From positions 1 to 50,951 of the forward strand of contig JBBUGM010000027.1 of NCBI GenBank assembly GCA_038077975.1: 50,951 bases of DNA. Reading direction: 5' to 3'. The notes beneath the pieces are model-generated. The model did not search any database, had not been told where the DNA came from, and saw only the letters and a list, made by a program, of their open reading frames with translations. The position numbers were made by a program, and so were the translations under genes. The stretch's first letter is position 1. Each line of letters starts with the position of its first letter. Shown piece after piece: positions 6,392-48,213 of the stretch. Origin of the DNA: Patescibacteria group bacterium. Lineage in GTDB: Bacteria; Patescibacteriota; Minisyncoccia; UBA6257; 2-01-FULL-56-20.

Positions 6392-6431
6392 CAAAGTGTC
6401 CTGTCTGACGATCGTCAGACAGGACACTTTG
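6392..6431. repeat. 40-bp perfect palindrome with no loop
   Basis: caaagtgtcctgtctgacga|tcgtcagacaggacactttg. Confidence 0.85.
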
Positions 6432-25239: not shown

Positions 25240-27312
25240 ATGCAAGACCTAAATCCACAACAAAAAAAGGCGGCCGAGGCGGCGGTCGGGCCGCTTATAA
25301 TAGTGGCCGGCGCCGGAACCGGAAAAACGCGCACATTAACGCACCGCATCATTCATTTAATAAATGAAGGGGTGCCGCCCGAGAGGGTCTGCGCGATAAC
25401 CTTCACGAATAAAGCGGCGGAAGAAATGCGTTCACGCATTTCTTTATCAACGAATAACGAATCAATTGCGAATAAACGAATTCGTAAATTCGAAACAAAT
25501 TTGTTATTCGCTGATTTGCCTTTTATAGGCACCTTCCACTCTCTTGGCGCGAAAATTTTACGGAAAGAAGCGCGCGCCCTTGGTCGAGCGCCGAACTTCG
25601 TTATTTTCGATAGCGACGATTCTTTTTCGCTCATTAAAAGAATCGTTAAAAAATTTTTCCCGAAAGAAGATCACAAAAAAGTTCTTCGACAAGCTCAGGA
25701 TAAAAAATCTCCGGCGTATTTCGCAAGAAAGATCGGTGAGATAAAAAATTTATATAATGCTGATGGCGATGATTATCGCCTGAGCGAACGGAGCGAGTCG
25801 AAGGCCAACCATCTAAAAACCCTTCGACAAGCTCAGGGAATAAACTGTGTTAAAATTTATAACGAATACGAGAACGAATTGAAAAAAAATAATGCATTCG
25901 ATTTTGATGACCTTATCGAAAAACCGGTTTCGCTTTTCGAAAAACATCCGGAGATCCTTGAAAAATATCAGAAAAAATTTGACGCCATCCTTGTCGACGA
26001 ATATCAAGATGTGAATCCGAAGCAATATGATTTCGTGCGCTTGCTTTCCGGCGGTCACAGAAACTTGAGCGTAGTAGGGGACGATGAGCAGATGATCTAT
26101 GGCTGGAGATATGCCGATGTAAAAATATTTTTGAATTTCGACCGTGATTGGCCTGGCGCGCAAATCGCATTCCTCGAAGAAAATTATCGTTCGACCGCGA
26201 ACATCATCAATGCCGCGGCCGCCGTCGCGAAAAATAATTTATTGCGGACACCGAAAACCCTTTGGACAAAAAGCGAGGCCGGCGCTCCGATAAAGATCAT
26301 CGAGATTGCGGATGAAGAGCAGGAAGCGGAATATATCGCGCGGGCAATATATAATGCCGATGATGCGGACGGAAACAATGCGGATGATGCCGATAACCAT
26401 CCGCAACATCCGCATAAAACATTCGTAGATCCGCATTATGAAAGCATCGCCGTGCTCTATAGGACCAACGCCCAGTCGCGGGCGCTAGAACAGGCGCTTA
26501 TCCGGCACCAAATTCCCTATAAGATATTCGGCGGAGTGCGGTTTTACGAGAGAAAAGAGATCAAGGATATAATTGCTGCCTTGCGCTGGGTTTTTAATCC
26601 GAAAGACACGATAAGCCGCGAAAGATTGGAGAAAAACCTGCCGAAATTCAAGTTTCGGGCGCTTGAAGACGCCCTAATTGAAACCAAAAATGAGCTCGCC
26701 GCGCCAAAGACGAACGGCGGAGGCGGGCTACCGACAGAACTTATCAAGACGTTTCTCGAAGCAACCGATTACCTCGAATATCTTGACAGGAGCTACTTAA
26801 ACGCCGAGGAAAGGCGGGAGAACATCAAGGAATTGGTGGGGTTTGCCGCCGGATTTGATGACTTGGAACGTTTTTTGGAAGAAGTGGCGCTGGTGCAACC
26901 CCTCGATCAATCTGGCGACAACAATAAAAATCGGGGTATCATCCAAAAAAATCAAGAAAATCATTCGGGGCATTCGGATGTATTTGTAGATTCGGATCGC
27001 GGCAGGTGGCCGGAGGTCCACCTGATGACCATCCACCTTGCGAAGGGGCTGGAGTTCGATCGCGTATTCATCGCCGGTTGCTCCGAGGGATTAATGCCCC
27101 ATGCGATGTCTATGGACAAGAGCGAACAACTCGAAGAAGAGAGGCGGCTGATGTACGTCGCGATGACGCGCGCGAAAAAAGAATTGAATATCAGTTTCTA
27201 CAACATTCCGTCGCGATTTATCGGCGAAATCCCGCAGGAACTTGCCGAATATAAAACCGCCGCGGATAATGCGGCGGGAAACGAAGAGGAGGAAATCGTT
27301 TTCTTGGATTAA
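25240..27312 (+). CDS. pcrA: SF1 helicase PcrA/UvrD with several repeat-derived insertions
   Basis: GAGTGKT, TFTNKAA, DEYQD, VGDDEQ, LEENYRS, LYRTNAQS, AKGLEF, EERRLMYVAMTRAK; ATG 25240. Confidence 0.95.
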   Translation: MQDLNPQQKKAAEAAVGPLIIVAGAGTGKTRTLTHRIIHLINEGVPPERVCAITFTNKAAEEMRSRISLSTNNESIANKRIRKFETNLLFADLPFIGTFHSLGAKILRKEARALGRAPNFVIFDSDDSFSLIKRIVKKFFPKEDHKKVLRQAQDKKSPAYFARKIGEIKNLYNADGDDYRLSERSESKANHLKTLRQAQGINCVKIYNEYENELKKNNAFDFDDLIEKPVSLFEKHPEILEKYQKKFDAILVDEYQDVNPKQYDFVRLLSGGHRNLSVVGDDEQMIYGWRYADVKIFLNFDRDWPGAQIAFLEENYRSTANIINAAAAVAKNNLLRTPKTLWTKSEAGAPIKIIEIADEEQEAEYIARAIYNADDADGNNADDADNHPQHPHKTFVDPHYESIAVLYRTNAQSRALEQALIRHQIPYKIFGGVRFYERKEIKDIIAALRWVFNPKDTISRERLEKNLPKFKFRALEDALIETKNELAAPKTNGGGGLPTELIKTFLEATDYLEYLDRSYLNAEERRENIKELVGFAAGFDDLERFLEEVALVQPLDQSGDNNKNRGIIQKNQENHSGHSDVFVDSDRGRWPEVHLMTIHLAKGLEFDRVFIAGCSEGLMPHAMSMDKSEQLEEERRLMYVAMTRAKKELNISFYNIPSRFIGEIPQELAEYKTAADNAAGNEEEEIVFLD

Positions 27313-28535
27313 ATGCTCGTCCCGGCAATAGAAAACAAGCTTCCTGTTCCAATTACGGTACAAAATGGAGGGGTCGCAAAAATTAGCTGAACGCACGGCT
27401 TGGCAAAAGAATAATTTCCCAACCAAATTGCGCCAATTCTCATGGATTCAAACGGATAGAAAAATGGAGGGAATACCATGCTAAGCGGCATAACAAGGGA
27501 ATCCGAAACGGGCGGTGGCGTTGGTAGCGTGATACCAAACCAAAAATTTGCACTGCAAATGCAAAATGGTGGCCAGCCGTAAATTGGCCCGCCCGGAGGA
27601 AGAGTGATGGCCCCGCCAAATCCCGGCAACTGTGCAAATGCTCGCTTTGGCACACCTAAAAATTCTGCCAGTTTCTGAAAAATGCCGGTGGAATCGTAAG
27701 AAAGAACATTCAATTGATCCAAAAATTTTTCATTTTCGAATAAGGATGTTGTTCGAAAGCGAGCAAAAAACAGTGTAAGTTCCTGCACGCTAATTCTGCC
27801 TTCGATTGTGGCGATAGCCTTATCGATCAACTCAATTGTTAAATCGTTCAAAGAAATTACCAATTTATTAGTCGTGGCTCCATCTCCAAAAACAGAGATA
27901 GATCTGGCGAATTCCTTACGGGCTTCCATAAAATCACGATAGATAAGCAAAGAATTTTTTATTTCCGGCGATCTTGCTCCATCTAATACTTTTTGGACAA
28001 GTTCATTCGGCAAAAGAGGACCGCTGCTTGCGTTTAATGCCAAATTTGCAAAACGAAGATTGTCAAATTCGATGCTTTCATAGCCGGAAGAAAACGCTTC
28101 AGCGTAATCAAGTGCTGTTTTCACACCGGCACTATCTATTCGCAGAATTTCATCGGCGATTACTGGCAGTTTAAGAAGTTCTTCGGCAGGCGGCGGCACG
28201 GTTATACCCGGCTGCCCCAGGGCATCTTGAACAGCCCTTGTCACGTCTTCTATCGACGGCACTTTTATGTCGAATTTAGGCGGTGAAATCGGCTCAAAAA
28301 CGCTTTTCCCGTCCTCGAGAGAGGGGATTCCGAGTGGGCCGGATGGGATGGATTCTGGCGGCAAAAACGCGCTCCCAGAGGGCTTAAATTCTGGTACGGA
28401 AACCGGCGGCAATCCGCCCCCGGGAGCTACGGCTTCCTTGGGCGCGGTGAATGGCGGAAAAACGAATATTAAAATTAAAAGAAGTCCTAGGCCGGCCACG
28501 GCAACAACGATCAAAAATTTGGGAGAATTAAGCAT
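27309..28535 (-). CDS. Membrane-anchored two-module surface protein
   Basis: N-terminal TM, Pro-rich linker, helical module, internal PKRAFA, Cys-containing C-terminal domain; stop codon shares TTAA with pcrA. Confidence 0.8.
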   Translation of the reverse strand: MLNSPKFLIVVAVAGLGLLLILIFVFPPFTAPKEAVAPGGGLPPVSVPEFKPSGSAFLPPESIPSGPLGIPSLEDGKSVFEPISPPKFDIKVPSIEDVTRAVQDALGQPGITVPPPAEELLKLPVIADEILRIDSAGVKTALDYAEAFSSGYESIEFDNLRFANLALNASSGPLLPNELVQKVLDGARSPEIKNSLLIYRDFMEARKEFARSISVFGDGATTNKLVISLNDLTIELIDKAIATIEGRISVQELTLFFARFRTTSLFENEKFLDQLNVLSYDSTGIFQKLAEFLGVPKRAFAQLPGFGGAITLPPGGPIYGWPPFCICSANFWFGITLPTPPPVSDSLVMPLSMVFPPFFYPFESMRIGAIWLGNYSFAKPCVQLIFATPPFCTVIGTGSLFSIAGTSI

Positions 28536-28564
28536 CTTATAAAATTATAATAGCACAATTCCAG

Positions 28565-28682
28565 ACAAATTTTCAATTATCAATTCTCAATTTTCAATCA
28601 AACCTCAAGCATTAATGCGCAATTGAAAATTAAACCATTTTGGAACTTTATTGATAATTGCTCATTGAAAATTGATAATTAA
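28565..28682. repeat. 7-nt periodic palindromic element (TCAATT/AATTGA family)
   Basis: Left arm ttttcaa-ttatcaa-ttctcaa-ttttcaa; right arm ttgaaaa/ttgataa units. Confidence 0.8.
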
Positions 28683-28685
28683 GCC

Positions 28686-29573
28686 ATGAGTCGCCTTGGC
28701 CAACATTTTTTAAAAGATAAAGTCGCGCTCAAAAAAATTGTTGATGCGCTGGATTTGCGCTCCGGTGACATCGTTATTGAGATTGGAGCGGGACACGGAG
28801 AGCTCACTAGAAAAATTATCAATTTTCAATTATCAATTTTCAAAAACGATGCGCAAAAAATTAAAATTATTGCAATCGAAAAAGACAATGGTCTCGCAAA
28901 AGAATTTGCGAGAAATTTTCAATGTCCAATTTCCAAGTTTCAAGAAAATGCTGATAAATTACTAAATGAAAATTTCGTGCTCTTTAATGATGATGTTTTG
29001 AAAATTCTAGCGCCCTTGATCGAATTTCTAAATTTGAAAATTGAAAATTGTAAATTGAAAATTTGCGGGAATATTCCCTACTACATCACCGGAAAACTTT
29101 TGCGTATTTTGAGCGAGCTGGAAAATAAGCCGGAGGTTTCCGTTTTCACAATCCAAAAAGAGGTTGCCGAAAGAATGTGCGCCTTGCCGCCGCGTAATAA
29201 CCGCTTGGCCGCAATAACACAGTTCTGGACAGAGCCAAAAATCCTCGAATATCTCGCGCCCGGGGCGTTTAATCCGCCGCCGGAGGTGGAGTCCGCCATC
29301 ATTAGATTAAAAATCAAAGATCAAAATGCAAAATTGATCGACGCGTGGAAATACTACGAAACCGTAAGAATTTTGTTCCAACAGCCGCGCCAAACAATTT
29401 TGAACAACCTCGCGCGGGCGACTAAACAAAAAAGGGCCATCGGCACAAATCAGCCCAATCGGCATAAATCAGCGATTATAGAAAAGCTTTCCGCAATAGA
29501 GATCGATCCCGAAAGCCGGCCACAAAATTTGAGCGTTGGAGAAATAATTCAAATCAGCTCCTTAAACCTTTGA
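28686..29573 (+). CDS. rsmA: 16S rRNA dimethyladenosine transferase with repeat-derived insertions
   Basis: LGQHFL, IEIGAGHGELT, AIEKD, GNIPYYIT, QKEVAERM, FNPPPEVESA, RPQNLS. Confidence 0.95.
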   Translation: MSRLGQHFLKDKVALKKIVDALDLRSGDIVIEIGAGHGELTRKIINFQLSIFKNDAQKIKIIAIEKDNGLAKEFARNFQCPISKFQENADKLLNENFVLFNDDVLKILAPLIEFLNLKIENCKLKICGNIPYYITGKLLRILSELENKPEVSVFTIQKEVAERMCALPPRNNRLAAITQFWTEPKILEYLAPGAFNPPPEVESAIIRLKIKDQNAKLIDAWKYYETVRILFQQPRQTILNNLARATKQKRAIGTNQPNRHKSAIIEKLSAIEIDPESRPQNLSVGEIIQISSLNL

Positions 29574-29764
29574 TCGGTCAATCCGGCATCGCGAATAATT
29601 CCGCGAAGGGTGTAGGGGTTAAGACGAGTATGTCGCGGTATAGTCACCCTGCGTCGTCCATCCGTCATGCCAATGTGTTTTTTCCCGCGACCTTCTGAAA
29701 TCCAGAAGCCGACTTTTTTTAAAGCCCTGACCAACCGATCGGATGAAATATCCGTAAAAAGCAT
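29549..29764 (-). CDS. hicA: HicA-family toxin
   Basis: LVRALKKVGF...GKKH...VTIPRH...TLRGIIRDAGL; TGATG coupling to hicB. Confidence 0.88.
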   Translation of the reverse strand: MLFTDISSDRLVRALKKVGFWISEGRGKKHIGMTDGRRRVTIPRHTRLNPYTLRGIIRDAGLTDQRFKELI

Positions 29765-29970
29765 CAGCCAGCGGCGATTTCCAACTCTCGAACCTTAACA
29801 TTGGTTCCTTCGGTCTCTGCCAAATCCATCCCAATATATGTCTTAATCGCGTCCCCGATGTTCTCTAGTGCCTCTTTTTCGGTTTTCCCTTGGCTGTGAC
29901 ACCCGGGAAAAGCGGGGACGTGGACATCGTAGCCATATTTGCTTTTCCGCAAAATAACAGTGTATTTCAT
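29764..29970 (-). CDS. hicB: Short HicB-family antitoxin
   Basis: VPAFPGCHSQGKTEKEALENIGDAIKTY; no C-terminal DNA-binding domain. Confidence 0.9.
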   Translation of the reverse strand: MKYTVILRKSKYGYDVHVPAFPGCHSQGKTEKEALENIGDAIKTYIGMDLAETEGTNVKVRELEIAAG

Positions 29971-29977
29971 TGCTTTT

Positions 29978-30005
29978 ATGCTAACAGGCCTAAAAAAAAA
30001 GTCAA
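29978..30005 (-). promoter_or_regulatory. hicBA promoter, likely leaderless
   Basis: TTGACT-16-(TGt)TAGCAT, then 7 nt to ATG. Confidence 0.6.
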
Positions 30006-30094
30006 GTTTTTGAGAGGCCGGCCTGCCCGAAACCGCTGTGTATAGTTTGGGAATTTCCTGGGTATAAAAGATATATAATGAATGTAAACGCCCC

Positions 30095-30228
30095 TTTCCG
30101 GCGATTGGTTTACGGTTTCGACGCCCGTATGGGATATCGGTTTACGGCGTATGGTTTCGAAGCCCGAATAACTTTCAACGTATAACGTATAACGATACGC
30201 GCTTCGTAAACGCACAACGTATAACGAT
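30095..30228. repeat. Long imperfect hairpin element, copy 1
   Basis: 30143-30187 matches 48105-48149 at 42 of 45 nt; tandem tataacg units. Confidence 0.8.
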
Positions 30229-30234
30229 GCTCAA

Positions 30235-32412
30235 ATGGTTGATATAAAAAAACTTATAACAGGATTTTTGATCTTGGCCGCAGTCGCGAGTTCTTCGGCC
30301 TTATTCCTGTCGAGCATAATTCCGTCCAAAAACGTTGCGCTTCAAAGCGAACCCCTAATCGAGGAATCATCCAATAACTCGCTCCCCCCTCTTTTGTCGC
30401 AAAATGCTTTCGTCGAGTCCCTGCCCGCATCCAAACCAGCTACTACACCCACACCATCTGCCTATGCTTCCAGCGACGGCCTGCCCCCGGTAATTCCAAC
30501 CGACAACCTCACGGAAAATCTCGCCCAACAGCTTACGCGTGGCATTTTCGCATCAAATCCCAACGGGCCGGGCGAAGTGGGCGGCGAAGCGGCATTTCTT
30601 TTACCGTCGGGAGAAGAGCTCGACTCCATGCTCGGGCAAAGCCTTGCGGCAAACAACCAGATCGGCGCATTGCCGGATTTTAACAATCCAATCTCGGATG
30701 TAAATCTAAAAATAATATCAAACGCAAGCCAGAAAGACGCCGAAAAATATTTTGAGGCGGTGGACAAGGCCCTTGGGCTGACTCTCTTCAACCAGAACTT
30801 TGACAGTTTGTTGGCGCAGGAGCCAAGTTTGAACGCGGCGGCAAGCGCTCGGCTTGTCTACGATGAAGCTGTTATAAAACTAGAAAATGCTTCTGTCCCC
30901 AAAGAACTCGTCTCGTTTCATAAATCGCTTCTCGCCCTCGTTTCCAATCAGAAAAAATTTACCGAAATTCTGACGAGCCATCTCGACGATCCGGCAAGAG
31001 CAATAGCTTTGGCAAGGACCGCGCAGGGAAAAATTGACGATGTAGCCGCTCGCGATGTTGAAAACTACCGAAAGGAATTTGAAAAACTGGGGACTATTTC
31101 TTTCTCCGGCAAAAACTCTTTGTCAATCTTCCAAGATTCATTCGGCATAAAAACGGCACATGCTTTTATCTTTGTTCCTATTAATCGTGCCTTAACGACT
31201 GATCCCATAGCAATCGCCGAAAAAGTTTCCACTTGGGGCAACTGGATACATAATCTTTATACATGGGTCCAGGACTATTTATTGGGCATACTCCAAAATC
31301 AACTGATTTCGTTAATCCAGAGACAGCTGATCAATTGGATACAAGGTGGCGGAAACCCCAAATTTATCACGGACTGGAAGAGCTTTTTGGGAGATATTTT
31401 CAATCAGGCGGCGGGGGCGGCGATAGACGAGCTTACTGATGGAGCATTGTGCAGTGCTTTCGGGCCGTTTATACGACTTAACCTTCGCAATACCTTTTCC
31501 GGCGGCGGCAGTTTGAATATAACGAGTTGCACGTTGGATCGAATAGTCGGCAATCTAAGGGGATTTTTCCAAGATTTCAGTTCTGGTGGATGGTTGGCAT
31601 ATGGGGCAATGTTGCAACCGGAAAACGATTTTTACGGCAAATATGCCATTGCATCTGAGTTCGCGCTTAGAAAAGCTGAAGACGCTAAAGAAGCCGCGAA
31701 AAACACCGGCCTTGCCGGTTCGGGCTTCTTGGGCACACAATCCTGCAGCGATGGTTCCGAAGCGCACCAGGGTAGATGCGCAGACGGTTCTACTCCTCAA
31801 ACGCGAACACCGGGAGAAACGGTAGCGAGCGCGCTTTCCGATTCGCTCAGCTTGCCGGGTCAGCGCATAGTCAATTCCAAACGCTTGGAGAACCTTATTG
31901 CCGCACTGGTGGACGCGGCGATAAACCGCATAATACAAAGCGGCCTTGCGGGCCTCTCGGGATTTTCTTTCAGCGGCTCCGGCCCGTCTCCCGGCGCATT
32001 GCCAACTATTCCCACCGAGCAACAGGGAACCCAACCGTCGGGCTCAACGCCTGCAACGGGTAATGCCGGCGGATGGACTGGCGGAGGGTCGAGCGGTGGC
32101 GGCGCGGTCTGCGGCAACGGCTCGTGTGAAACCGGCGAAACAATAATAAGTTGTCCCGCCGATTGCGGTGGCGGCGAAGGGGGCGGTGGAGGATTGGCCT
32201 GCACGCCGTCGACACAAAACGTTGCTGCGGGAAGCCCGGCAGCGCTTACGGCACAAAACGGAACTGGTAATTACTCCTGGGGTGCACCGGGCGGCTCACC
32301 ATCGAACGGCACTGGCCCATCTTTCTCCGTTACATATCTCTTCACTGGGCTAAAAACCGTCCTTCTTGGAGACGGCGTAAGCAGTGTCAGCTGCCAGGTT
32401 ACCGTCCAATAA
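30235..32412 (+). CDS. Large membrane-anchored surface protein, first gene of the T4SS-like cluster
   Basis: N-terminal TM, helical module, internal GIKTAHA, Gly-rich linker, CGNGSCETGETIISCPADC repeat, terminal Ig/PKD-like domain. Confidence 0.85.
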   Translation: MVDIKKLITGFLILAAVASSSALFLSSIIPSKNVALQSEPLIEESSNNSLPPLLSQNAFVESLPASKPATTPTPSAYASSDGLPPVIPTDNLTENLAQQLTRGIFASNPNGPGEVGGEAAFLLPSGEELDSMLGQSLAANNQIGALPDFNNPISDVNLKIISNASQKDAEKYFEAVDKALGLTLFNQNFDSLLAQEPSLNAAASARLVYDEAVIKLENASVPKELVSFHKSLLALVSNQKKFTEILTSHLDDPARAIALARTAQGKIDDVAARDVENYRKEFEKLGTISFSGKNSLSIFQDSFGIKTAHAFIFVPINRALTTDPIAIAEKVSTWGNWIHNLYTWVQDYLLGILQNQLISLIQRQLINWIQGGGNPKFITDWKSFLGDIFNQAAGAAIDELTDGALCSAFGPFIRLNLRNTFSGGGSLNITSCTLDRIVGNLRGFFQDFSSGGWLAYGAMLQPENDFYGKYAIASEFALRKAEDAKEAAKNTGLAGSGFLGTQSCSDGSEAHQGRCADGSTPQTRTPGETVASALSDSLSLPGQRIVNSKRLENLIAALVDAAINRIIQSGLAGLSGFSFSGSGPSPGALPTIPTEQQGTQPSGSTPATGNAGGWTGGGSSGGGAVCGNGSCETGETIISCPADCGGGEGGGGGLACTPSTQNVAAGSPAALTAQNGTGNYSWGAPGGSPSNGTGPSFSVTYLFTGLKTVLLGDGVSSVSCQVTVQ

Positions 32413-32424
32413 AAATTTCTTGAA

Positions 32425-34806
32425 ATGTCCATTCTGAAAATAAATAAAAAATATTGGCTGGCGTTTATTCTTCTGGCGGTCGTTTTTATGGTCGCGACTC
32501 CACTAAATTTAGCGCGCGCGCAAGAACTTCCGAGCGCCCGTTCATGCGCCGGTAATCTTGTTGGTTGCGGAGTATATGTCACCGCATTGCTTGCAAATAA
32601 AATCAGTGGGTTGCTGGTATCCGGCGGGGCCTATCTTTTTGAGATTTCCCTGGAATTTAGCGCGGGGGCCGCTCGTATGCCGGTCGTTGAAAATGGTTTC
32701 AGCACGGCTCTTGCAATAGCCAATCTTGGATTTGTTCTTGGCATTATAGTAATCGCTATTGCAACAATTCTTCGCAATCAGACGTATGGCATCAAACAGC
32801 TTCTTTGGAAACTGGTAGTCGCGGCAATACTTGTTAACTTCTCTTTAGTAATAGGAAGAACTATTGTGGAGTCCGCGGATAATTTAACGAAGTCGTTTTT
32901 ACCGAACAGAAGCGTGCTGGCGGCGAGATTAGCCGATGCCCTCAAACCGCAGGCCGCCAATATTCCCCCGGTGCTTGCTTCTGCGGGCTCGAGCGGAGCA
33001 TGGTCGGCAAGTGTATGCGCCGATCAAGCAAGCAAGCTTGGAACCGACGCATTAAGAAAAGCGGCCGCTGCCACGTGTTCATTTATGGCCACAATACTAG
33101 ATCCGGTTTCAACTATACAAAATTTTACCTGGTTCTGGGGGCTTGGTCTGGGGGATTTATTCAGGGCGGCGCTAAATATGGTGATGGTGGTCTTTGTCAA
33201 TATGGTAATTGCATTTACTTTGTTGGCCGCCGCCATAATGTTAATTATCAGATTCTTTTACATAGGCATTTTGCTTATATTAATGCCGTTCGCGTGGCTG
33301 ATGTGGATTTTCCCGAACTTCAAATATCTGTGGACAAAGTGGTGGGGCTTGTTTTTAAGGTGGACGATGTTCGCGCCTGTCGTCGTAATTTTCTTGTTCC
33401 TTGCTTCTGAAACAGCTCAAATCGAATTTATCGACAATATAATCGGTGGCGCTGGAAACTTAAACAGTAGCGCTGCCATAGCTTTGTCTGCCGGAACCGG
33501 CAATCCCGCGCTCACCTTCTCTGTTGCGTCGCAAATAATGGTTGCCGCCTTTGCCCTCGGCGGGCTTTTCGCGGCTAACTCTCTAGGCATCCACGGAGCG
33601 TCATTCGCAATGGGCATCGCGAAAAGCGCGGGCACGATGGCGGCGGGGTATGTGGGGAAGCAAACCAAAAAGGGCGGCAGGGCTATACTGCGTAGCACGG
33701 GCATTGCGGAGAGAATGAGAACCAGTCCGTTGAGGCCGGTAGCTATTGCGGGCAGAGCGTTAGCTGGCATCAGTACGAACGAGGCGATGGTCGCGGAAGC
33801 CGCAAAAAAAGTGCTGGACAGAAAAGAGGATGTAATGGCAGGCCTTAGGGGCTCAATGAACACCGAAACACGGATGGCATATCTGCAAAAAGCTCAGAAG
33901 GAGGGCTGGATCAAACCGGATACGGAGGTGGGCGGTATGAGTGTGGGCGAATTTCTGAATCGGAATAGGGAAAAATTCAAGGGTTACGGGCAAAGCGGGG
34001 AAGGAAGTTTGGAAGAAAAATTAAGGGAGGACACGAAGTTGGCAGAACAAGATTGGACAAATGAAGAAAAAACAATCAATGCAAGAAACGGGGAACTAAA
34101 CAAAAAACGCAGTCTTTCCGACGAGGATGCCGCAAAGCAGGCCGGTTTGGGCGACGACGATAGGAATTTCTATTTGGCCGCAGAAAAAGAGAGCGAATAT
34201 GAATTTGCCTTGCGATCCGAAAAAGACAAAGAGAGGTTCTCTCAACTCCGCAGCAAGGCGCAGGAAGCCAGAGAAAAAGGCGGCCTCTCGCCCGAAGAAC
34301 AAAGAGAATTTGAAGAAAACCAGAGAAAACTTGGCGACATCGAAAGGAAGCGCAGTAAATACGTTTCAAAAAATCCGGATGCCGCCGCGGCAACTTTCCA
34401 AGACCACGAAGCGGCGCGCGCCAAACTTGCAGCCGAAGGCAAGCCGATTCCGGCAACGCTGGAGAAGGAATCGATAGAACGTATGCAAGAGGCAATGTTA
34501 AGCGCGATGGCTAAGGGTTTTTCTCCTCACACTGCCCGCGCCCTACTTGATGCCATTGGGAAAGCTAACAACCTTAAGCACTTTGAGGCCGCCGTAATGC
34601 GCCTAAAAGAAGGTAAAACGCCGGAGGATAAAAAGAAATTCGACCAAATACAGATGGCTCTCAACGCTAACACAGAACTCAAGCGCTGGATGCAAAACAG
34701 CGCGGGCCGGGCGCTTTTCGGCAACATTCATGAATTGTTCGGGCTTAAGAAGCTTAAGAATAAGAAGCGGAAGATAGAGGACGAAGAAGATGAAGAAGAA
34801 GCATAA
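32425..34806 (+). CDS. VirB6/TrbL-like polytopic membrane protein with a charged coiled-coil tail
   Basis: Signal peptide (LARA-Q), multiple TMs (IILLILMPFAW-like, WWGLFLRW), long K/E-rich C-terminus; context upstream of prgI and virB4. Confidence 0.72.
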   Translation: MSILKINKKYWLAFILLAVVFMVATPLNLARAQELPSARSCAGNLVGCGVYVTALLANKISGLLVSGGAYLFEISLEFSAGAARMPVVENGFSTALAIANLGFVLGIIVIAIATILRNQTYGIKQLLWKLVVAAILVNFSLVIGRTIVESADNLTKSFLPNRSVLAARLADALKPQAANIPPVLASAGSSGAWSASVCADQASKLGTDALRKAAAATCSFMATILDPVSTIQNFTWFWGLGLGDLFRAALNMVMVVFVNMVIAFTLLAAAIMLIIRFFYIGILLILMPFAWLMWIFPNFKYLWTKWWGLFLRWTMFAPVVVIFLFLASETAQIEFIDNIIGGAGNLNSSAAIALSAGTGNPALTFSVASQIMVAAFALGGLFAANSLGIHGASFAMGIAKSAGTMAAGYVGKQTKKGGRAILRSTGIAERMRTSPLRPVAIAGRALAGISTNEAMVAEAAKKVLDRKEDVMAGLRGSMNTETRMAYLQKAQKEGWIKPDTEVGGMSVGEFLNRNREKFKGYGQSGEGSLEEKLREDTKLAEQDWTNEEKTINARNGELNKKRSLSDEDAAKQAGLGDDDRNFYLAAEKESEYEFALRSEKDKERFSQLRSKAQEAREKGGLSPEEQREFEENQRKLGDIERKRSKYVSKNPDAAAATFQDHEAARAKLAAEGKPIPATLEKESIERMQEAMLSAMAKGFSPHTARALLDAIGKANNLKHFEAAVMRLKEGKTPEDKKKFDQIQMALNANTELKRWMQNSAGRALFGNIHELFGLKKLKNKKRKIEDEEDEEEA

Positions 34807-34819
34807 ATTCTAGCTAAAC

Positions 34820-36358
34820 ATGACTAATATCACCACGCAACAAGCAAGGGCGCGCTTCACAACAATTCCGCAAATCTTGCAGAACGAGGTTTTTTCCGTA
34901 CAAAACGCGGAAGTTATCGAGCAAATCTCGAAGCAAAATAATTTACCCGACGAGAAAATAGGAGAAGTTGCGGAAGTTGTTGGTTTCGCTCTTTTGGGGT
35001 TCATCCATCCCGAAGATGTGGCGAAAGAAGTAGAAGAACGGGCCGAAATTCCGCCCGCGCTTGCAACCGCGATATCCGAAGCGATAAATAAAAAAATATT
35101 CGCTTCTTTAAGAAACCAGTTAGATGAAATCTATGCTCCGGCTCCCCACGATCACGAACTCGAAGAAAAACCGCCGGTCTTTGTGGAAGAAATTAGGCCG
35201 CCGGTGGCGACTGCTCCTTCCGCTCCGAAAATGCCGACGGCGGTGCAACCCGTTGATATCAACAAAATTTTTGGCCCTTCGGCTGGCTCAGGGCAGGCGA
35301 TGACGCGACCCATTCCGCCGCCAGCGGTAAAACCTTTCGGCGCAATACAGGTTAAACCGCCGATGCCGCCTGCGCCGTCAACCGCAACAGGAATGAAAGT
35401 AGAGCCGCCCAAGCCGCCAGTATCGCAAATCTCTCCGATAAAGCCCGCCTCATCGACGCCTACATCAAAACCGCCCGGCAAGGAGGGATTGAGCGAATTT
35501 GAACGCCTCGGACTCGCCAAAAAATTAGGAGAGGCAACAGAACCAACGGTGCTTTACAAAGCACCAGAGGCAAAACTCGGCGAAAAAGTATCGAGTTTCA
35601 AGATCGAAACGCCGATCCCGAAATTCGACAAAGGAAAGCCCTTCGACTCCGCTCGGGGTATAACCGCTCCCCTAAGGCCGGCAGTACTCGAATTCGGGAC
35701 GGGCAAGCCGCCAGCCGCCCCTCCTTCGCCCAAAGCCGCGGAGGGCAAGGCGAGAATTGTGAACTATTCGGATCTAAAAACGACTCTTCCCCCGGTGGCA
35801 CCAAAACCGGCTCCAGAAAGAGAAATTAGGGAATTCACCGCGAAAGAAGCCGGACTCCCGACTTCACCCTCCAAAATTTCTGAAAGAAATTTAGGAGGGC
35901 AGGCGTCGGGAATGACAGAGAGGCCAGCGGCCGTGGCGCCATCGCCAATTAAACCCTTCGACTTCGCTTCCGCCGACGCCAGGGCTTTGGCGGACAGGCA
36001 GGGAATAAAAGCTCCAGAAAAACCAGCGGCTACACCCATGTCCAGACCACTCTTGGGGGACGAGAAAGCGATGCACCCCTCCCTTGAACCGTTGATGAAA
36101 AAAAGCGAGCCGCCCTCGCCTCCGGCTACGGCGAGCCAAAGACCGCCGGCTCCGCCGCCTTCCCCTTCGACAAGCTCAGGGAATAACGGAAGTTTATCGC
36201 CTGAGCGAGCTTCACGAGTCGAAGGCCGCCCTGCGACAAGCCCGGGAAATAACTCGACAAGCTCGGAGAATAACACCCCGCTGGCTTCTCCTCGCCCAAG
36301 AATCGAGCCACCACCCGTTCGTCGGCCAGAAAATCCATCCGACGAACGCAAGCTCTAA
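34820..36358 (+). CDS. Protein with a folded N-terminal helical domain and a Pro-rich disordered tail built partly from REP-like repeats
   Basis: Ordered first ~105 aa, then P/S/A-rich; repeat copies detailed in findings. Confidence 0.8.
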   Translation: MTNITTQQARARFTTIPQILQNEVFSVQNAEVIEQISKQNNLPDEKIGEVAEVVGFALLGFIHPEDVAKEVEERAEIPPALATAISEAINKKIFASLRNQLDEIYAPAPHDHELEEKPPVFVEEIRPPVATAPSAPKMPTAVQPVDINKIFGPSAGSGQAMTRPIPPPAVKPFGAIQVKPPMPPAPSTATGMKVEPPKPPVSQISPIKPASSTPTSKPPGKEGLSEFERLGLAKKLGEATEPTVLYKAPEAKLGEKVSSFKIETPIPKFDKGKPFDSARGITAPLRPAVLEFGTGKPPAAPPSPKAAEGKARIVNYSDLKTTLPPVAPKPAPEREIREFTAKEAGLPTSPSKISERNLGGQASGMTERPAAVAPSPIKPFDFASADARALADRQGIKAPEKPAATPMSRPLLGDEKAMHPSLEPLMKKSEPPSPPATASQRPPAPPPSPSTSSGNNGSLSPERASRVEGRPATSPGNNSTSSENNTPLASPRPRIEPPPVRRPENPSDERKL

Positions 36359-36485
36359 ATCCTAAGCCCTAAATCCTAAACAAAATCAAAATTCTAATGT
36401 TCCAAAACGCTAAAAACTTTTGGAATTTAGGATTTGTGGTTTGGGGCTTGTTTAGAATTTAGAATTTAAATATTAGAATTTAAAC
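36355..36485. repeat. 7-nt periodic palindromic element (CTAAAT/ATTTAG family)
   Basis: ctaaatc-ctaagcc-ctaaatc-ctaaaca left arm; ttagaat-ttagaat right arm. Confidence 0.8.
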
Positions 36486-36487
36486 TG

Positions 36488-36979
36488 ATGCAATTCCAAG
36501 TTCCCCAATTCATCGAAACGGAAGACAAGATAGTCGGGCCTTTTTCCATAAGGCAATTCATTTATATAGGCGCGGCCGGCATTGTGAGCTTCTTCCTTTA
36601 TTTCACGGTCGAGCTCTGGCTTTGGGTTTTGGGCACCGTTTTTTCGCTGGCGCTCGCAATGGGATTCGCCTTCATCAAGATAGAAGGGCGCGATTTAACG
36701 CATGTTCTCGCCGCGGCTTTGAACTTTTACTGGAAGCCACAAACCTACGTCTGGCAGCCGGAACATCCGGAAGTGCCGAAAAGCGAGGCGCTCGAAAAGG
36801 AAGCGGGAATTTCACTTGAAGACGTCCTTTCCGGTGCCGCGCTTCGAAACGCCTGGCGTGGGCTACAGACCGGCACGAAAGTTTCGCCTAGACAGGTCCT
36901 CGAGAAAGGAGAGAAATATCAGATCTTTCAAAAATTGAGCGGAGAACGCCGCGCCGCAAGGCGCATAGATTACAGATAA
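36488..36979 (+). CDS. prgI: PrgI-family (VirB3-like) membrane protein
   Basis: MQFQVPQFIETEDKIVGPFSIRQF followed by two TMs. Confidence 0.85.
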   Translation: MQFQVPQFIETEDKIVGPFSIRQFIYIGAAGIVSFFLYFTVELWLWVLGTVFSLALAMGFAFIKIEGRDLTHVLAAALNFYWKPQTYVWQPEHPEVPKSEALEKEAGISLEDVLSGAALRNAWRGLQTGTKVSPRQVLEKGEKYQIFQKLSGERRAARRIDYR

Positions 36980-37839: not shown

Positions 37840-39555
37840 ATGCCTGAAAATAATTTCAAAAACATCGCGAAGATAATAGCGCCCTCCGGCGTGCAGGTGC
37901 AGTCGAACAAGGCGAAGATCGGCAACAAAATCGCCAAGGCGTTCTTCGTTTTTTCTTATCCGCGCTATCTCGCGACCGGATGGTTCGAGCCCCTGATCAA
38001 CCTCCCCTACCTTTTCGATGCCTCCGTCTTCATAGACCCGATAGACACGGGCACGGCTTTGAAAAACCTACGAAAAAAGGCGGCGCAGATCGAGTCGCAG
38101 ATCAACGACCAGCAGGAAAAAGGGCTCGTGCGCGACCCCCTGCTCGAAACCGCCCTCCAGGACGTGGAGACCCTGCGCGATACACTCCAAACCTCGCAGG
38201 AAAAGCTCTTTGATGTCGGCCTTTATGTGACGATCTATGCCGACACCGACGACGAACTTGCGAAAGTCGAGTCGAAGCTTATCTCTCTTCTCGAAGCAAA
38301 GCTTGTCTACTTGAAGCCGGCGCTTTTCGAACAGCTTGAGGGCATTTTCTCGACCCTCCCCTTGGTTGACGACAAGTTGAAGATACACACGCCGATGAAC
38401 TCGGGGCCGGTTTCGTCTTTCTTCCCGTTCGTCTCCGAAGATCTTTCTTCCAACGAAGGAATTCTCTACGGCGTGAACCTCCACAACCAAAGTTTGGTCA
38501 TCTTCGACAGATTCTCGCTTGAAAACGCGAACCAGGTAGTTTTCGCGAAATCCGGCGCCGGAAAATCGTACGCCACGAAACTCGAGATCATCAGAGCCCT
38601 GATGACTGATGTCGAAAACATTATCATCATCGACCCCGAGAACGAATACAAAAAACTGGCGGAGACGTTCGGCGGCAGCTGGTTCAATATCTCGCTCTCT
38701 TCGAAAGAGCATATCAACCCATTCGACATACCCATGGTTCCCGAAGATGAATCTCCCGCAGACGTTTTGCGCTCTCACATCGTGAACCTTACGAGCTTAC
38801 TCAAGCTCATGCTCGGAAAGATCGCCCCGGAAGAAGAGGCGCTCCTCGACCGCGCCGTCACGGAAACCTACGCTTCGCGTGAGATCTCACCGAACAGGGA
38901 TTTCTCGGGCATCGAGCCGCCACTCCTCGAAGACCTCGAAACGGTTCTCCGCAATCTTGAGGGCGGCCGTTCGATGGCGGAGAGATTATACAAATACACA
39001 AAGGGTAGTTTTTCCGGCTTCATCAACCAGCCGACGAACGTGGACATGTCTAACCGGCTTATCGTTTTTTCCATCCGCGATCTTGAGGAAGAGCTACGGC
39101 CGATCGCTATGTTCGTCATTTTGAACTTTATTTGGAACCTTATACGCGCAAAACTTTCAAAGCGCCTACTTTTGATTGACGAGGCGTGGATCATGATGAA
39201 GAACGAAGACGCCGCCACTTTCCTTTTCGGAATGGTGAAACGCGCGAGAAAATATTATTTGGGCGTGACGACGATTACGCAGGACGTGGAGGACTTCTTG
39301 CGTTCGCCTTACGGCAGGCCGATCATCACAAACTCTTCTCTCCAGCTTTTATTAAAACAGGCGCCGGCAACGATCGAGCTTGTGGCGAAAGCTTTTAATT
39401 TAACTGAAACGGAAAAGAATTTCCTTCTGGGCTCCGAGGTCGGAACCGGACTTTTCTTCGCCGGCCGCAGGCACGTGGCGATCCAGATCGTCGCGTCTTA
39501 TTTCGAGGATCAGATAATCACGACAAACCCGGCGGAACTTTTGGAAGGAAAGTAG
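37840..39555 (+). CDS. virB4: VirB4-like T4SS ATPase
   Basis: ILYGVN, FDRFSLENAN, Walker A FAKSGAGKS, IIDPENEY, INPFD, Walker B LLIDEAW, RARKY, TITQDVEDF. Confidence 0.93.
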   Translation: MPENNFKNIAKIIAPSGVQVQSNKAKIGNKIAKAFFVFSYPRYLATGWFEPLINLPYLFDASVFIDPIDTGTALKNLRKKAAQIESQINDQQEKGLVRDPLLETALQDVETLRDTLQTSQEKLFDVGLYVTIYADTDDELAKVESKLISLLEAKLVYLKPALFEQLEGIFSTLPLVDDKLKIHTPMNSGPVSSFFPFVSEDLSSNEGILYGVNLHNQSLVIFDRFSLENANQVVFAKSGAGKSYATKLEIIRALMTDVENIIIIDPENEYKKLAETFGGSWFNISLSSKEHINPFDIPMVPEDESPADVLRSHIVNLTSLLKLMLGKIAPEEEALLDRAVTETYASREISPNRDFSGIEPPLLEDLETVLRNLEGGRSMAERLYKYTKGSFSGFINQPTNVDMSNRLIVFSIRDLEEELRPIAMFVILNFIWNLIRAKLSKRLLLIDEAWIMMKNEDAATFLFGMVKRARKYYLGVTTITQDVEDFLRSPYGRPIITNSSLQLLLKQAPATIELVAKAFNLTETEKNFLLGSEVGTGLFFAGRRHVAIQIVASYFEDQIITTNPAELLEGK

Positions 39556-40333: not shown

Positions 40334-40339
40334 ACACAA

Positions 40340-40480
40340 AAAACCAAAATTGTAAATCACAAATTACAAGCACCAAATTACAAACAAATTCCAATAACCA
40401 AAATAAAAATTCCAAACCTTTCGAATTTCGGATTTATAATTTTGATATTGTTTGTGATTTGAAATTTGTAATTTACCTAT
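40340..40480. repeat. 7-nt periodic palindromic element (CAAATT/AATTTG family)
   Basis: 32-nt taaatcacaaattacaagcaccaaattacaaa is identical at 40353-40384 and 41208-41239. Confidence 0.85.
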
Positions 40481-40503
40481 GGGGTAGTTGAAAAAATTTA
40501 AAA

Positions 40504-41199
40504 ATGGCAACACAAAATTTAGCAATTAAGTTTATTGTAGTTGCGGCGCTTGTCGCCCTGTTTTTTGCCGCGCAGTTCTTGAGCGCGCAGGCACAAGCGC
40601 AGCCATATCTTTGGATAACATGGCACGCGGAAAGCTACGCGCCGCCCGGCTTCGGAGGGAAAATCTTGCCGACGGCCGGCTCGCCCATCACCGCGTCTTT
40701 TGAAGTGATCGGCGGCGGCAAACCGGCTAACGTTTCCGCGCAAACCGTTTATTGGTATTTGAATAATGAGCTTATTTCGAACAAGGCGGGTACAAAAACC
40801 GTGAAATTCAACGCACCCTCAAGAACTTCCGCGCTTTTGGATCTGCGCATCGAGCTTCCCACATATCCTGGGGGACTTCTTCTTCGAACGGCGCGGATTC
40901 CTGTCGTCTCACCGGAAGCCGTAATTGAAGCGCCTTATCCGGATAAAGCGTTTTCCGGCGCGCAAATAAAAGCAACGGGAAGGCCTTACTTTTTCAACAT
41001 ACAAAACATTTCAGAGCTTAACTTTTCATGGAGCGTTGACGGACAAACTCCGGGTTCTCTCGAGCGCCCGCAGGAACTTATCGTTAATCTCGACCCTAGC
41101 TCGCCGATGGGAACCGCCGTGAACCTCGCCCTCACTATCCTCAACGCGAAAAACCAAGCGGAGTCGGGCTCCGGATTCCTAATATTGAGAAAACAATAG
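40504..41199 (+). CDS. Secreted protein with two Ig/PKD-like beta domains
   Basis: Signal peptide ending AQA; VYWYLNN and FSWSVDG motifs. Confidence 0.78.
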   Translation: MATQNLAIKFIVVAALVALFFAAQFLSAQAQAQPYLWITWHAESYAPPGFGGKILPTAGSPITASFEVIGGGKPANVSAQTVYWYLNNELISNKAGTKTVKFNAPSRTSALLDLRIELPTYPGGLLLRTARIPVVSPEAVIEAPYPDKAFSGAQIKATGRPYFFNIQNISELNFSWSVDGQTPGSLERPQELIVNLDPSSPMGTAVNLALTILNAKNQAESGSGFLILRKQ

Positions 41200-41204
41200 C
41201 AGTC

Positions 41205-41432
41205 GGTTAAATCACAAATTACAAGCACCAAATTACAAATTAATATTAAAAGTCAAAAACATCTGTCATTCTCGGACTCGATCCGAGAATTCAGGATCGT
41301 CCAAGAAACTAGATTCCCGCTTTCGCGGGAATGACAGGGAATATCATTTTGGTCATTGAAATTTGTTTGTGATTTGTAATTTCGAATTTGTGATTTTAGC
41401 CGCTTGGGATTTGATTAGGTCAATTAGAAATT
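41205..41432. repeat. Composite: heptamer palindrome with a nested REP (41264-41336), then a 29-nt dispersed repeat
   Basis: tgtcatt...gattcccgctttcgcgggaatgaca between heptamer arms; ttgggatttgattaggtcaattagaaatt is identical at 41404-41432 and 44477-44505. Confidence 0.8.
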
Positions 41433-41799: not shown

Positions 41800-41925
41800 T
41801 TTAATCTCTAAACTCAAAACCCTAATCTCTAAACAATTTCAAATGTCGAAATCCGAAACGGTTAGTTTTTGAAATTTGAGTTTTGGATTTGTTTAGAAAT
41901 TAGAAATTAGGATTTAGAAATTTGT
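41800..41925. repeat. 7-nt periodic palindromic element
   Basis: tttgagttttggatttgtttaga is identical at 41875-41897 and 44421-44443. Confidence 0.8.
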
Positions 41926-41931
41926 TTTACC

Positions 41932-44344: not shown

Positions 44345-44512
44345 AGGGCAAAAAATTTCTAAATCCTAATTTCTAATCTCTAAATAATCTCAAACATCAA
44401 AGTTCAAAGGGGTTTTGGGGTTTGAGTTTTGGATTTGTTTAGAGATTAAGGTTTAGAGATGAGAGATTTCAAACTGTTGGGATTTGATTAGGTCAATTAG
44501 AAATTAGATTAA
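44345..44512. repeat. Heptamer palindromic elements between rnpA and yidC
   Basis: ttctaaa-tcctaat-ttctaat-ctctaaa left arm; identities with 41875-41897 and 41404-41432. Confidence 0.78.
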
Positions 44513-44839
44513 TTAGAAATTTTGCTTGATTTTTTCTCCAAACGTCCGAAGCGCTTCCTTAACTTCTTCCGCGGTTGCTTCGTTAATTTTTTTGAAAACT
44601 ATGACCAGAATGTCTTTTTGATTCTCTGCGGATTTTTTAATTTCATCGGCGATGATCCTTCTCCAAAAATTCCTCCTTGCGGCGTTTTTCACTGCCGCGG
44701 AAGAAATGATGATCCCGAATCTGGGGTGGACTACTTCGTTTTCGAAAACCTTTATCAAAAAGAATGGCAGCGAGATCGTTTGCTTCGGCTTTTTCCTTTT
44801 CGTTTCTTCTACGGCCAGACGAAATTTTTTGGAATACAT
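44513..44839 (-). CDS. rnpA: Ribonuclease P protein component
   Basis: RFGIIISSAAVKNAARRNFWRRII (RNR-like), DILVI; position after rpmH. Confidence 0.85.
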   Translation of the reverse strand: MYSKKFRLAVEETKRKKPKQTISLPFFLIKVFENEVVHPRFGIIISSAAVKNAARRNFWRRIIADEIKKSAENQKDILVIVFKKINEATAEEVKEALRTFGEKIKQNF

Positions 44840-48067: not shown

Positions 48068-48213
48068 CGGTGTACGTTAGAGATGCCCGTTTCGGATATC
48101 ATCCTACGGCGTACGGTTTCGAAGCCAGAATAACTTTCAACGAATAACGATACTCACTTCCAAACCGTACAGCGAAAAACGATTGGCGATACGGGCTTCC
48201 AAAACGTACACCG
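48068..48213. repeat. Long imperfect hairpin element, copy 2, between convergent dnaN and the PBP gene
   Basis: cggtgtacgtt/aacgtacaccg (11 bp); tacggtttcgaag/cttccaaaccgta (12 of 13). Confidence 0.8.

Follow-up and report, generated by a model that had tools for sequence, protein, structure and literature searches.

Two genes of the window share a hairpin repeat

The stretch of DNA analysed here (50,951 nt, called the window below) is part of contig C27 in the metagenome-assembled genome of a groundwater bacterium of the Patescibacteria (771,694 bp in 33 contigs, 49% G+C, 88.6% complete). Two of its genes, pcrA for a UvrD/PcrA helicase and a proline-rich open reading frame (ORF) of 512 aa, contain copies of the same short repeat, which on balance we take to be the terminal repeat of a small cassette encoding a GIY-YIG nuclease. 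The 24-mer CCCTTCGACAAGCTCAGGGAATAA occurs exactly at 25820-25843 and at 36163-36186, where 100 shuffles gave an expectation of 0, and these two sites are its sole matches in the window at up to 3 mismatches. A second motif, TTATCGCCTGAGCGA-N6-CGAGTCGAAGGCC, is present at 25773-25806 and 36194-36227. The preliminary description of this DNA had reported both identities and had read the 24-mer as TLRQAQGI in pcrA and as PSTSSGN in the 512-aa ORF; matches and frames alike proved accurate.

In the 24-mer (R unit), a stem of 4 bp (N-CCT/AGG-N') encloses a loop of 11 nt (TCGACAAGCTC) and is followed by the tail AATAA; the partner motif (L unit) is the same unit on the opposite strand, its loop being longer (GAGCG...GTCGA). 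In pcrA, three units lie within a variable stretch of the protein, between SLIKRI and FDFDDLI (Table 1), and the arrangement of two of them, L-13 nt-R, is that of the gene-bearing cassettes described below (L225, L208, L227, L147, L251, L261 and L114). In the 512-aa ORF, the order is R, L, then two degenerate R copies, of which the exact R unit and the L unit form a tails-in pair, and the degenerate copies look like local partial duplications. The 512-aa ORF matches no Pfam family, and lies directly upstream of genes for PrgI (36488-36979), a TraC-like protein and a VirB4/TraG-type ATPase (37840-39555), so that its earlier designation as a gene of a type IV secretion system cluster is a fair label.

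Table 1. Host genes and hairpin units in the window.
Feature	Position	Strand	Unit sequence	Frame	Remarks
Host gene 1, UvrD/PcrA helicase, 707 aa	25189..27312	+			Translation; Pfam UvrD families on identical protein
Solo R unit, slightly diverged	25682..25705	+	TTCT-TCGACAAGCTC-AGGA-TAAAA	VLRQAQDK	In pcrA
L unit (minus-strand R-type unit, long loop)	25773..25806	-	TTATC-GCCT-GAGCGAACGGAGCGAGTCGA-AGGC	YRLSERSESKA	In pcrA
R unit	25820..25843	+	CCCT-TCGACAAGCTC-AGGG-AATAA	TLRQAQGI	In pcrA; one of 8 exact genomic copies
Composite L-13 nt-R, tails-out, 71 nt	25773..25843	+			In pcrA; TTAT...ATAA outward
Host gene 2, proline-rich ORF, 512 aa	34820..36358	+			Units in disordered C-terminal part
R-type unit, 12-nt loop	35639..35658	+	CCCT-TCGACTCCGCTC-GGGG	PFDSARG	In 512-aa ORF
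R unit, exact 24-mer	36163..36186	+		PSTSSGN	In 512-aa ORF
L unit, long loop	36194..36227	-	TTATC-GCCT-GAGCGAGCTTCACGAGTCGA-AGGC	LSPERASRVEG	In 512-aa ORF
Two overlapping degenerate R units (36229-36252, 36250-36273)	36229..36273	+	CCCTGCGACAAGCCCGGGAAATAA, TAACTCGACAAGCTCGGAGAATAA		83% and 75% identity to reference unit

The hairpin itself was examined in 48 units picked by loop and inner stem only. Their fourth (outermost) stem pair is Watson-Crick in 44 cases (C-G in 25, T-A in 15 and G-C in 4), compared to a mean of 19.1 and a maximum of 31 over 5000 shuffles; stem positions 2 and 3 also alternate between C-G and G-C, and no pairing past position 4 is seen in this set. Within the pcrA doublet, which as single-stranded DNA (ssDNA) folds with -14.1 kcal/mol (z = -3.96), the covarying N/N' bases are complementary inside each unit and not between units, and each unit therefore keeps its own symmetry. 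A search of Rfam with the whole window at gathering thresholds, and with both sites at E<=10, returned only two tRNAs and noise, and a full-text literature search with the motif DNA and with peptides derived from it (LRQAQGE, FDKLRAN, SLSKGE and others) returned nothing relevant. Likenesses to the T-loop and D-loop of tRNA, loop C of 5S rRNA, the inverted repeat of Tn3 and the attC sites of integrons were dropped as weak partial matches.

The units are dispersed and mostly lie within genes

A search of the genome for the 24-mer, as the preliminary description had proposed, found 8 perfect matches, spread over 6 contigs, and 37 when up to 3 mismatches were allowed; the two sites of the window are thus members of a dispersed family and not its sole copies. 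In total, 84 units were counted on 25 contigs, 45 of them in sense and 19 in antisense orientation within ORFs; of the others, 19 are intergenic and 1 lies at the edge of an ORF. About 76% of the units are thereby placed inside ORFs, as called by a crude longest-ORF heuristic that yields 864 ORFs covering 88% of the genome. Some 44 ORFs host a unit, in three frames and on both strands. Hosts include the tRNA synthetases LeuRS (4 units), IleRS and ValRS, the DNA-related proteins UvrA (3 units), GyrB, RecR and PcrA, the cell wall enzymes MurC (2 units), MurD, Ddl and Alr, as well as MiaA, EF-P, transketolase and RsmE. Short-loop units in ORFs are biased towards the sense strand (41 against 9 antisense, p = 5.6e-6) and are mostly translated as PSTSS (26) or LRQAQ (12). 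Eighteen pairs of neighbouring units are inverted, 12 with tails out and 6 with tails in.

Comparison with orthologues suggests how these peptides arose. PcrA orthologues have 600-650 aa in 28 of 31 relatives, and all three units are absent from them, as they are from the closest PcrA found among 5.8 billion proteins (61% identity) and from the PcrA of the same genus. The stretch from SLIKRI to FDFDDLI measures 96 aa here and 79-85 aa in five relatives, and the segment KNx-ALKIF measures 31 aa compared to 17 aa in relatives. Relative to solved homologues, EF-P is longer by 14-15 residues (PLRQAQGKPGSAQAL) in a loop and RecR by 10 (NPSTSSGQIK) inside its zinc finger, and in Alr and MurD the segment before the first aligned residue, in which the units lie, exceeds that of the solved homologue by about 15-20 aa. 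That orthologues do without the units supports their insertion as DNA, as opposed to protein homology; the same view had been put forward from the two window sites, and the occurrence of units in three frames and on both strands bears it out. PcrA also has a second lineage-specific, low-complexity insert at about 26400-26470 (residues NADDADGNNADDADNHPQHPH), which is not built of the hairpin unit and occurs in none of the relatives examined.

Distribution among relatives and across phyla

A 17-mer of the unit, searched at up to 1 mismatch, has 41 copies in this genome, compared to 0-10 in each of 60 relatives and a single one in the genome of the same genus, with 0 in every genome for the reversed-pattern control. 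Expansion of the family is lineage-specific, and the family is greatly expanded here. Exact copies of the 17-mer were found in at least 120 stretches of contigs representing one genome per species, in Bacteroidota, Cyanobacteria, Pseudomonadota, Actinomycetota, Chloroflexota, Nitrospirota, Planctomycetota, Acidobacteriota, Verrucomicrobiota, Eremiobacterota and Patescibacteria. By our estimate, about 70 matches could arise by chance in the 596 Gb concerned, so this raw cross-phylum count proves little. The flanks of these copies are non-random: the closing pair N/N' is formed in 124 of 138 copies, the 3' tails fall into few types (GCGAACGG, GTGAC, ATGAC and GACCG), and several loci carry 2-5 copies.

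The version with the AATAA tail was found on at least 115 metagenome contigs, mostly of groundwater organisms of the Candidate Phyla Radiation (CPR), and the tailed 23-mer had 0 matches in viral contigs. On CPR contigs, the R unit usually caps a longer hairpin (GCCAAAAAGTTA-C-CCT...AGG-G-AA-TAACTTTTTGGC; -12.2 kcal/mol, z = -5.6), and L/R pairs often lie inside organism-specific outer inverted repeats, in the manner of MITEs (miniature inverted-repeat transposable elements). Two such MITE-like copies of about 120-140 nt with an L/R core, at L203:5866-5985 and 7061-7201 of one CPR contig, have outer inverted repeats GAGGTCATTTCAAAA… and stand in inverted orientation around genes for a 5S rRNA and a membrane protein. 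Tandem arrays of R units also occur, with four copies at a 24-nt period (G023:C1:3896-3984) and three copies at a 45-nt period (L190:1525-1640, minus strand); the unit evidently tends to multiply locally as well.

A small GIY-YIG gene is bracketed by the units

Unbiased clustering of the ORFs lying up to 700 nt from the motif at 236 loci yielded, as top recurrent neighbour family, a single-domain GIY-YIG protein of about 87 aa. At all 7 such loci (6 independent), units bracket the gene on both sides as inverted ends. The 5' unit, of L type except for one case of R type, lies 19-146 nt before the start codon, and the R unit starts 1-27 nt after the stop codon. The ORFs encode 87-100 aa, with 0-17 nt between the gene and the ends, and the tails TTATT/AATAA point outward. 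These loci are on contigs of CPR metagenomes, apart from one of an Eremiobacterota genome, which has TGAC tails. The family member of the present genome matches PF01541, and a family hidden Markov model (HMM) spans the whole protein; no match for the cassette nuclease was found in NCBIfam.

The association holds from either side. With the family HMM, 13 members were found in motif loci, 7 of them within 150 nt of the motif, compared to about 1.2 expected. Reciprocally, 30 Patescibacteria loci chosen by protein alone have 29 units within the 14.6 kb closest to the gene and 3 within 65.9 kb of more distant sequence, a 44-fold enrichment, and 12 of the 30 have units within 250 nt; perfect inverted repeats around the gene, beyond the units, are not above control at these 30 loci. 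Across 301 Patescibacteria genomes, the odds ratio for joint occurrence of motif and gene is 4.9 (p = 2e-9), a figure that ignores phylogenetic relatedness, and the nuclease is encoded in 24 of 26 genomes with at least 5 copies and in 12 of 12 with at least 8.

Besides these unit-flanked genes, three small GIY-YIG genes of the present genome (C31:19610-19795, C8:218-403 and C11:10295-10507) are each enclosed by the arms of a perfect inverted repeat of at least 16 nt (CCGAGCACATAAGTTAT…ATAACTTATGTGCTCGG and CCCCCTCACTCGAAAA…TTTTCGAGTGAGGGGG). This suggests a general design, that of a nuclease gene inside a hairpin, which exists in several repeat dialects.

Relation to the Ssn nucleases and a proposed mechanism

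The closest precedent is found in the Ssn enzymes (Chenal et al. 2025, Nat Commun 16:2388, PMC11893778), which have a single GIY-YIG domain, measure about 94 aa and belong to family cd10448. They bind hairpin repeats (NTS/SRM) on ssDNA and cut beside them; 71% of ssn genes have at least one flanking repeat and 42% have repeats on both sides, and the NTS-ssnA-NTS layout was likened by its authors to an insertion sequence (PMC11893778). Patescibacteria are unmentioned in that work. The present system resembles Ssn in its protein of about 90 aa with a single GIY-YIG domain, in a gene with inverted hairpin repeats on either side, copies of which are scattered through the genome as well (not cleanly so in this genome), in high repeat counts accompanying the gene and in the existence of gene-less inverted doublets. 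A partial stem, ATTCCC...GGGAAT, is common to both, with the lead-in GTTATTCCC here and GTCATTCCC in NTS, and canonical Ssn proteins of relatives nest in the same protein tree. It differs in having a 4-bp core stem with a conserved 11-nt loop, compared to a stem of 7-9 bp and a loop of 3-6 nt, in proteins only about 35% identical to canonical Ssn, and in its predominantly genic units, whereas only 2% of NTS lie inside genes in N. meningitidis (PMC11893778).

Classic Ssn-type genes are present in Patescibacteria as well: three loci of relatives (L300, G059:C3; L304 and L312, G008) have genes of 94 aa with the motif …GFTxRYxVHxLVYFE…REKQLKKWNRxWK…NPxWxDL and with inverted TGTCATTCCCGCG… repeats on both sides. 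When 45 small GIY-YIG proteins are placed in a tree, the canonical Ssn clade (support 100/99) is nested among unit-flanked proteins, and units are carried by 10 of the 14 members of the main clade, that of L251; a canonical SRM within 400 nt was found at 0 of the 30 protein-selected loci. Since the canonical clade nests among unit-flanked proteins and the units fail the published SRM pattern (see below), we read the unit as a second hairpin dialect, probably served by its own branch of Ssn-like nucleases.

The SRM pattern finds 10 canonical NTS-like copies in the present genome, and such motifs number 8-24 in four relatives (G047, G011, G028 and G017). Two of the copies form a tails-out doublet at 41264-41337 of the window (CTGTCATTCTCGGACTCGATCCGAGAATTCAGG, 13 nt, CTAGATTCCCGCTTTCGCGGGAATGACAG), gene-less like that of pcrA. 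At miaA (C6:31363-32553), composite L/R elements are found at both the 5' and the 3' end, in the frames …HPLSLSKGT… and …SSLSLSKGGVQKCYPSTHSGNN…, a repeat-gene-repeat layout that recalls the NTS clusters around genes in Neisseria.

We propose that the 24-nt unit is the terminal inverted repeat of a cassette of about 330 bp with the structure TTATT-N-CCT-GAGCTTGTCGA-AGG-N', a GIY-YIG gene of about 87 codons, and N-CCT-TCGACAAGCTC-AGG-N'-AATAA. The pcrA element (L, 13 nt, R) would be a gene-less miniature of this cassette, and the remaining copies would be solo ends or mosaics of ends. By analogy with Ssn, the nuclease would recognise the unit as an ssDNA hairpin and, acting in trans, drive or accompany its spread; by the same analogy, we infer that it may mobilise the repeat. 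In a gene-dense genome of 0.77 Mb, the surviving copies would be those inserted in frame into tolerant surface loops or disordered tails, and we propose that inserts of the PSTSSGN and LRQAQGI type are therefore found in essential proteins. The candidate partner in the present genome is the gene at C14:1223-1462, and a closer copy may sit in the approximately 11% of the genome that is unassembled. Overall, we consider that the hairpin repeat is somewhat more probably than otherwise a cassette end, recognised as an ssDNA hairpin by a nuclease that drives or accompanies its spread in trans.

A number of observations weigh against this proposal. What has been shown for Ssn is cleavage of ssDNA and modulation of transformation, not transposition (PMC11893778). 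Neither the L and R units of pcrA nor the full CPR hairpin nor the cross-phylum consensus fits the SRM pattern HGTCWYN(0-2)YYVSBRHN(0-5)WNVSBRGN(0-2)RNCYNB on either strand, and the nearest solved structures of the cassette protein are UPF0213 proteins. A lone unit forms a hairpin of marginal stability (-1.1 kcal/mol, z = -0.36). Co-occurrence of motif and gene, apart from the neglect of relatedness, is incomplete in both directions: the 17-mer is absent from 76 of 143 nuclease-positive genomes, and 24 motif-positive genomes are without the nuclease at E<=1e-8. The present genome lacks a cassette whose L and R ends are canonical; its one family member at C14:1223-1462 is diverged (43% identical to the query, on a long branch), with a degenerate L-like hairpin (C14:1232) 20 nt upstream and no unit downstream, and its other six small GIY-YIG genes lie at least 760 nt from any unit. 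In PcrA, the net length gains (+14 aa and +2 aa) are unequal to the unit lengths, so that simple cut-and-insert cannot be demonstrated. Finally, the only strain-level relative contig is identical at the repeats, with 1 mismatch in 16 kb, and hence offers no polymorphism that would indicate movement, or the recent activity supposed in the preliminary description.

Alternative explanations

The main rival explanation is that processes of the host spread the hairpins, for example slippage during replication, template switches at hairpins, short-patch recombination of one unit with another or the taking up of foreign DNA, and that the GIY-YIG gene, as a distinct selfish homing element, enters the spacers of L..R doublets already in place, thus marking the repeats and not moving them. 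We judge this unlikely, though still a serious contender. The nuclease gene does occupy the exact position of the doublet spacer, and the loops of unrelated perfect inverted repeats hold other small GIY-YIG genes of this genome. Slippage is suggested by local partial duplications and by tandem arrays (36229-36273, G023, L190), and the length changes of PcrA suit replacement better than clean insertion. However, the cassettes are very compact, with 0-17 nt from gene to ends, high copy number tracks the nuclease (all 12 genomes with at least 8 copies), and host processes alone leave the identical 17-mer with its covarying stem across many phyla unexplained.

Selection for a host function, be it as a hairpin in transcripts (for stability or termination), as a transformation signal like NTS/Ssn or through a useful peptide, would make the repeat something other than selfish DNA. 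Competence-type DNA uptake has been proposed for CPR bacteria. The stem covaries, short-loop units in ORFs show the sense bias given above, and the Ssn/NTS system modulates transformation in Neisseria (PMC11893778). The sense bias could equally reflect tolerated peptides or a strand-specific ssDNA mechanism, and the three reading frames of the unit give unrelated peptides. Further arguments against selection of this kind are the absence of copies from orthologues of every protein checked, the lack of conserved copy positions in the genome of the same genus, the lack of a matching Rfam family and the thermodynamically marginal hairpin of the unit. We therefore hold a host function to be a poor explanation, with little probability.

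The preliminary description had supposed a mobilising enzyme acting in trans from outside the window, of the type of the HUH transposases of repetitive extragenic palindromic (REP) sequences, known as RAYTs. The idea of such an enzyme stands in spirit, in that the clustering of ORFs near the repeat led to the GIY-YIG gene in other genomes; for its supposed type there is no support, as PF01797 is unmatched in the present genome, which is the copy-richest and 88.6% complete. A RAYT or a Y1 (HUH) transposase of the IS200/IS605 type might be unassembled or lost, and the units do share with REP sequences, REPINs (inverted REP doublets) and bacterial interspersed mosaic elements (BIMEs) the form of short imperfect palindromes, the inverted doublet as likely mobile unit, mosaics of alternating orientation and a single-copy enzyme gene flanked by repeats (PMC2817692, PMC3116915, PMC3333891). 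Of 31 relatives, 7 have Y1 transposases, and in 6 of these the 17-mer occurs at least once. Yet the Y1 loci of these relatives have no units within about 1.2 kb, and tblastn with three Patescibacteria Y1 proteins detected none, either in the genome or in the 1.64 Mb (236 loci) that surround 260 motif copies. The tags GTAG and CGTC are lacking, the flanks being TTATT/AATAA here and CGAACGG, TGAC or GACCG elsewhere. Moreover, REP sequences are extragenic, whereas the units here are mostly intragenic and in frame, and their associated gene encodes a GIY-YIG protein and not an HUH/Y1 enzyme. Taken together, mobilisation by a Y1 enzyme appears very improbable.

An artefact of assembly or binning, such as a chimeric join at the repeat or a contaminant, may practically be dismissed even for a metagenome-assembled genome of 33 contigs, and with repeats that in other genomes often lie at contig ends, since independent assemblies reproduce both loci exactly (a European Nucleotide Archive contig with 99.994% identity over 16.2 kb, 1 mismatch, that includes the pcrA copies, and the identical 512-aa protein encoded on 6 contigs of other assemblies), and the copies lie mid-contig, within intact ORFs, across 25 contigs.

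Similarity to other small repeats

The nearest parallel in behaviour is provided by the Rickettsia palindromic elements (RPEs). As described by Ogata and colleagues in 2000, these are reportedly palindromic inserts that are in frame in essential genes of a reduced genome, occur in different frames and are tolerated at surface positions; they are said to measure about 100-150 bp and to be restricted to their lineage. We know of no enzyme partner for RPEs. In-frame palindromic insertion into proteins whose orthologues are without it (PcrA, EF-P, RecR, Alr and MurD) is common to both, as shared behaviour and not as membership by sequence. The present elements differ in their size (24 nt, or 71 nt for the doublet), in a 17-mer that extends across many phyla and in having a candidate nuclease partner.

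The small dispersed repeats of Nostocaceae, attributed to Elhai and colleagues in 2008, are likewise said to be of about 20-30 nt, to nest in one another and to sit in genes on occasion. Likeness to these repeats and to MITEs (PMC3184786) lies in very small size and in the fuller copies of CPR metagenomes with outer terminal inverted repeats; inverted ends exist here together with a longer, gene-bearing form. The outer inverted repeats vary between organisms while the double-hairpin core is conserved, however, and the associated gene is that of a nuclease, an enzyme not known as a transposase, and not of a DDE transposase. No target-site duplication or target motif was seen on inspection of the unit flanks.

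Implications

These results would extend the Ssn/hairpin-repeat system, described in 2025 and mainly in Neisseria, to Patescibacteria and to a hairpin type missed by the published pattern. They also point to a new behaviour, in that the repeats do not stay intergenic and colonise essential coding sequence, including aminoacyl-tRNA synthetases, EF-P, the zinc finger of RecR and UvrA. A recurrent cross-phylum motif, source of spurious ORFs and odd peptide inserts in many genomes, thereby gains a candidate partner enzyme, and in annotation such inserts are better regarded as repeat-derived than as lineage-specific protein features. The nuclease and its hairpin could also add a specificity to the ssDNA-cutting toolbox proposed for Ssn.

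A far wider statement might be ventured, which we consider rather doubtful: that Ssn-like single-domain GIY-YIG nucleases transpose what would be the smallest mobile DNA known from bacteria, with 24-nt ends, doublets of about 70 nt and ssDNA intermediates, which would spread across phyla on a cassette of about 330 bp and write loops of 8-25 codons into essential proteins of reduced genomes. If transposition were indeed at work, the cross-phylum pseudo-peptides FDKLRAN, LRQAQGE and SLSKG, and perhaps in-frame palindromes of the RPE kind, would share one enzymatic cause.

Other repeats of the window

The window has further repeats. A perfect 40-nt palindrome, CAAAGTGTCCTGTCTGACGA|TCGTCAGACAGGACACTTTG, is found at 6392-6431, and an 81-nt repeat (81% identity) at 30107-30187 and 48069-48149, its second copy belonging to an inverted repeat with 64-nt arms (48068-48213). 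Several intergenic spacers (28557-29065, 36350-36482, 40339-40520, 41208-41432, 41803-41926 and 44350-44521) consist of arrays of period-7 words (AAATTGA, TCTAAAT and similar), which form long imperfect hairpins.

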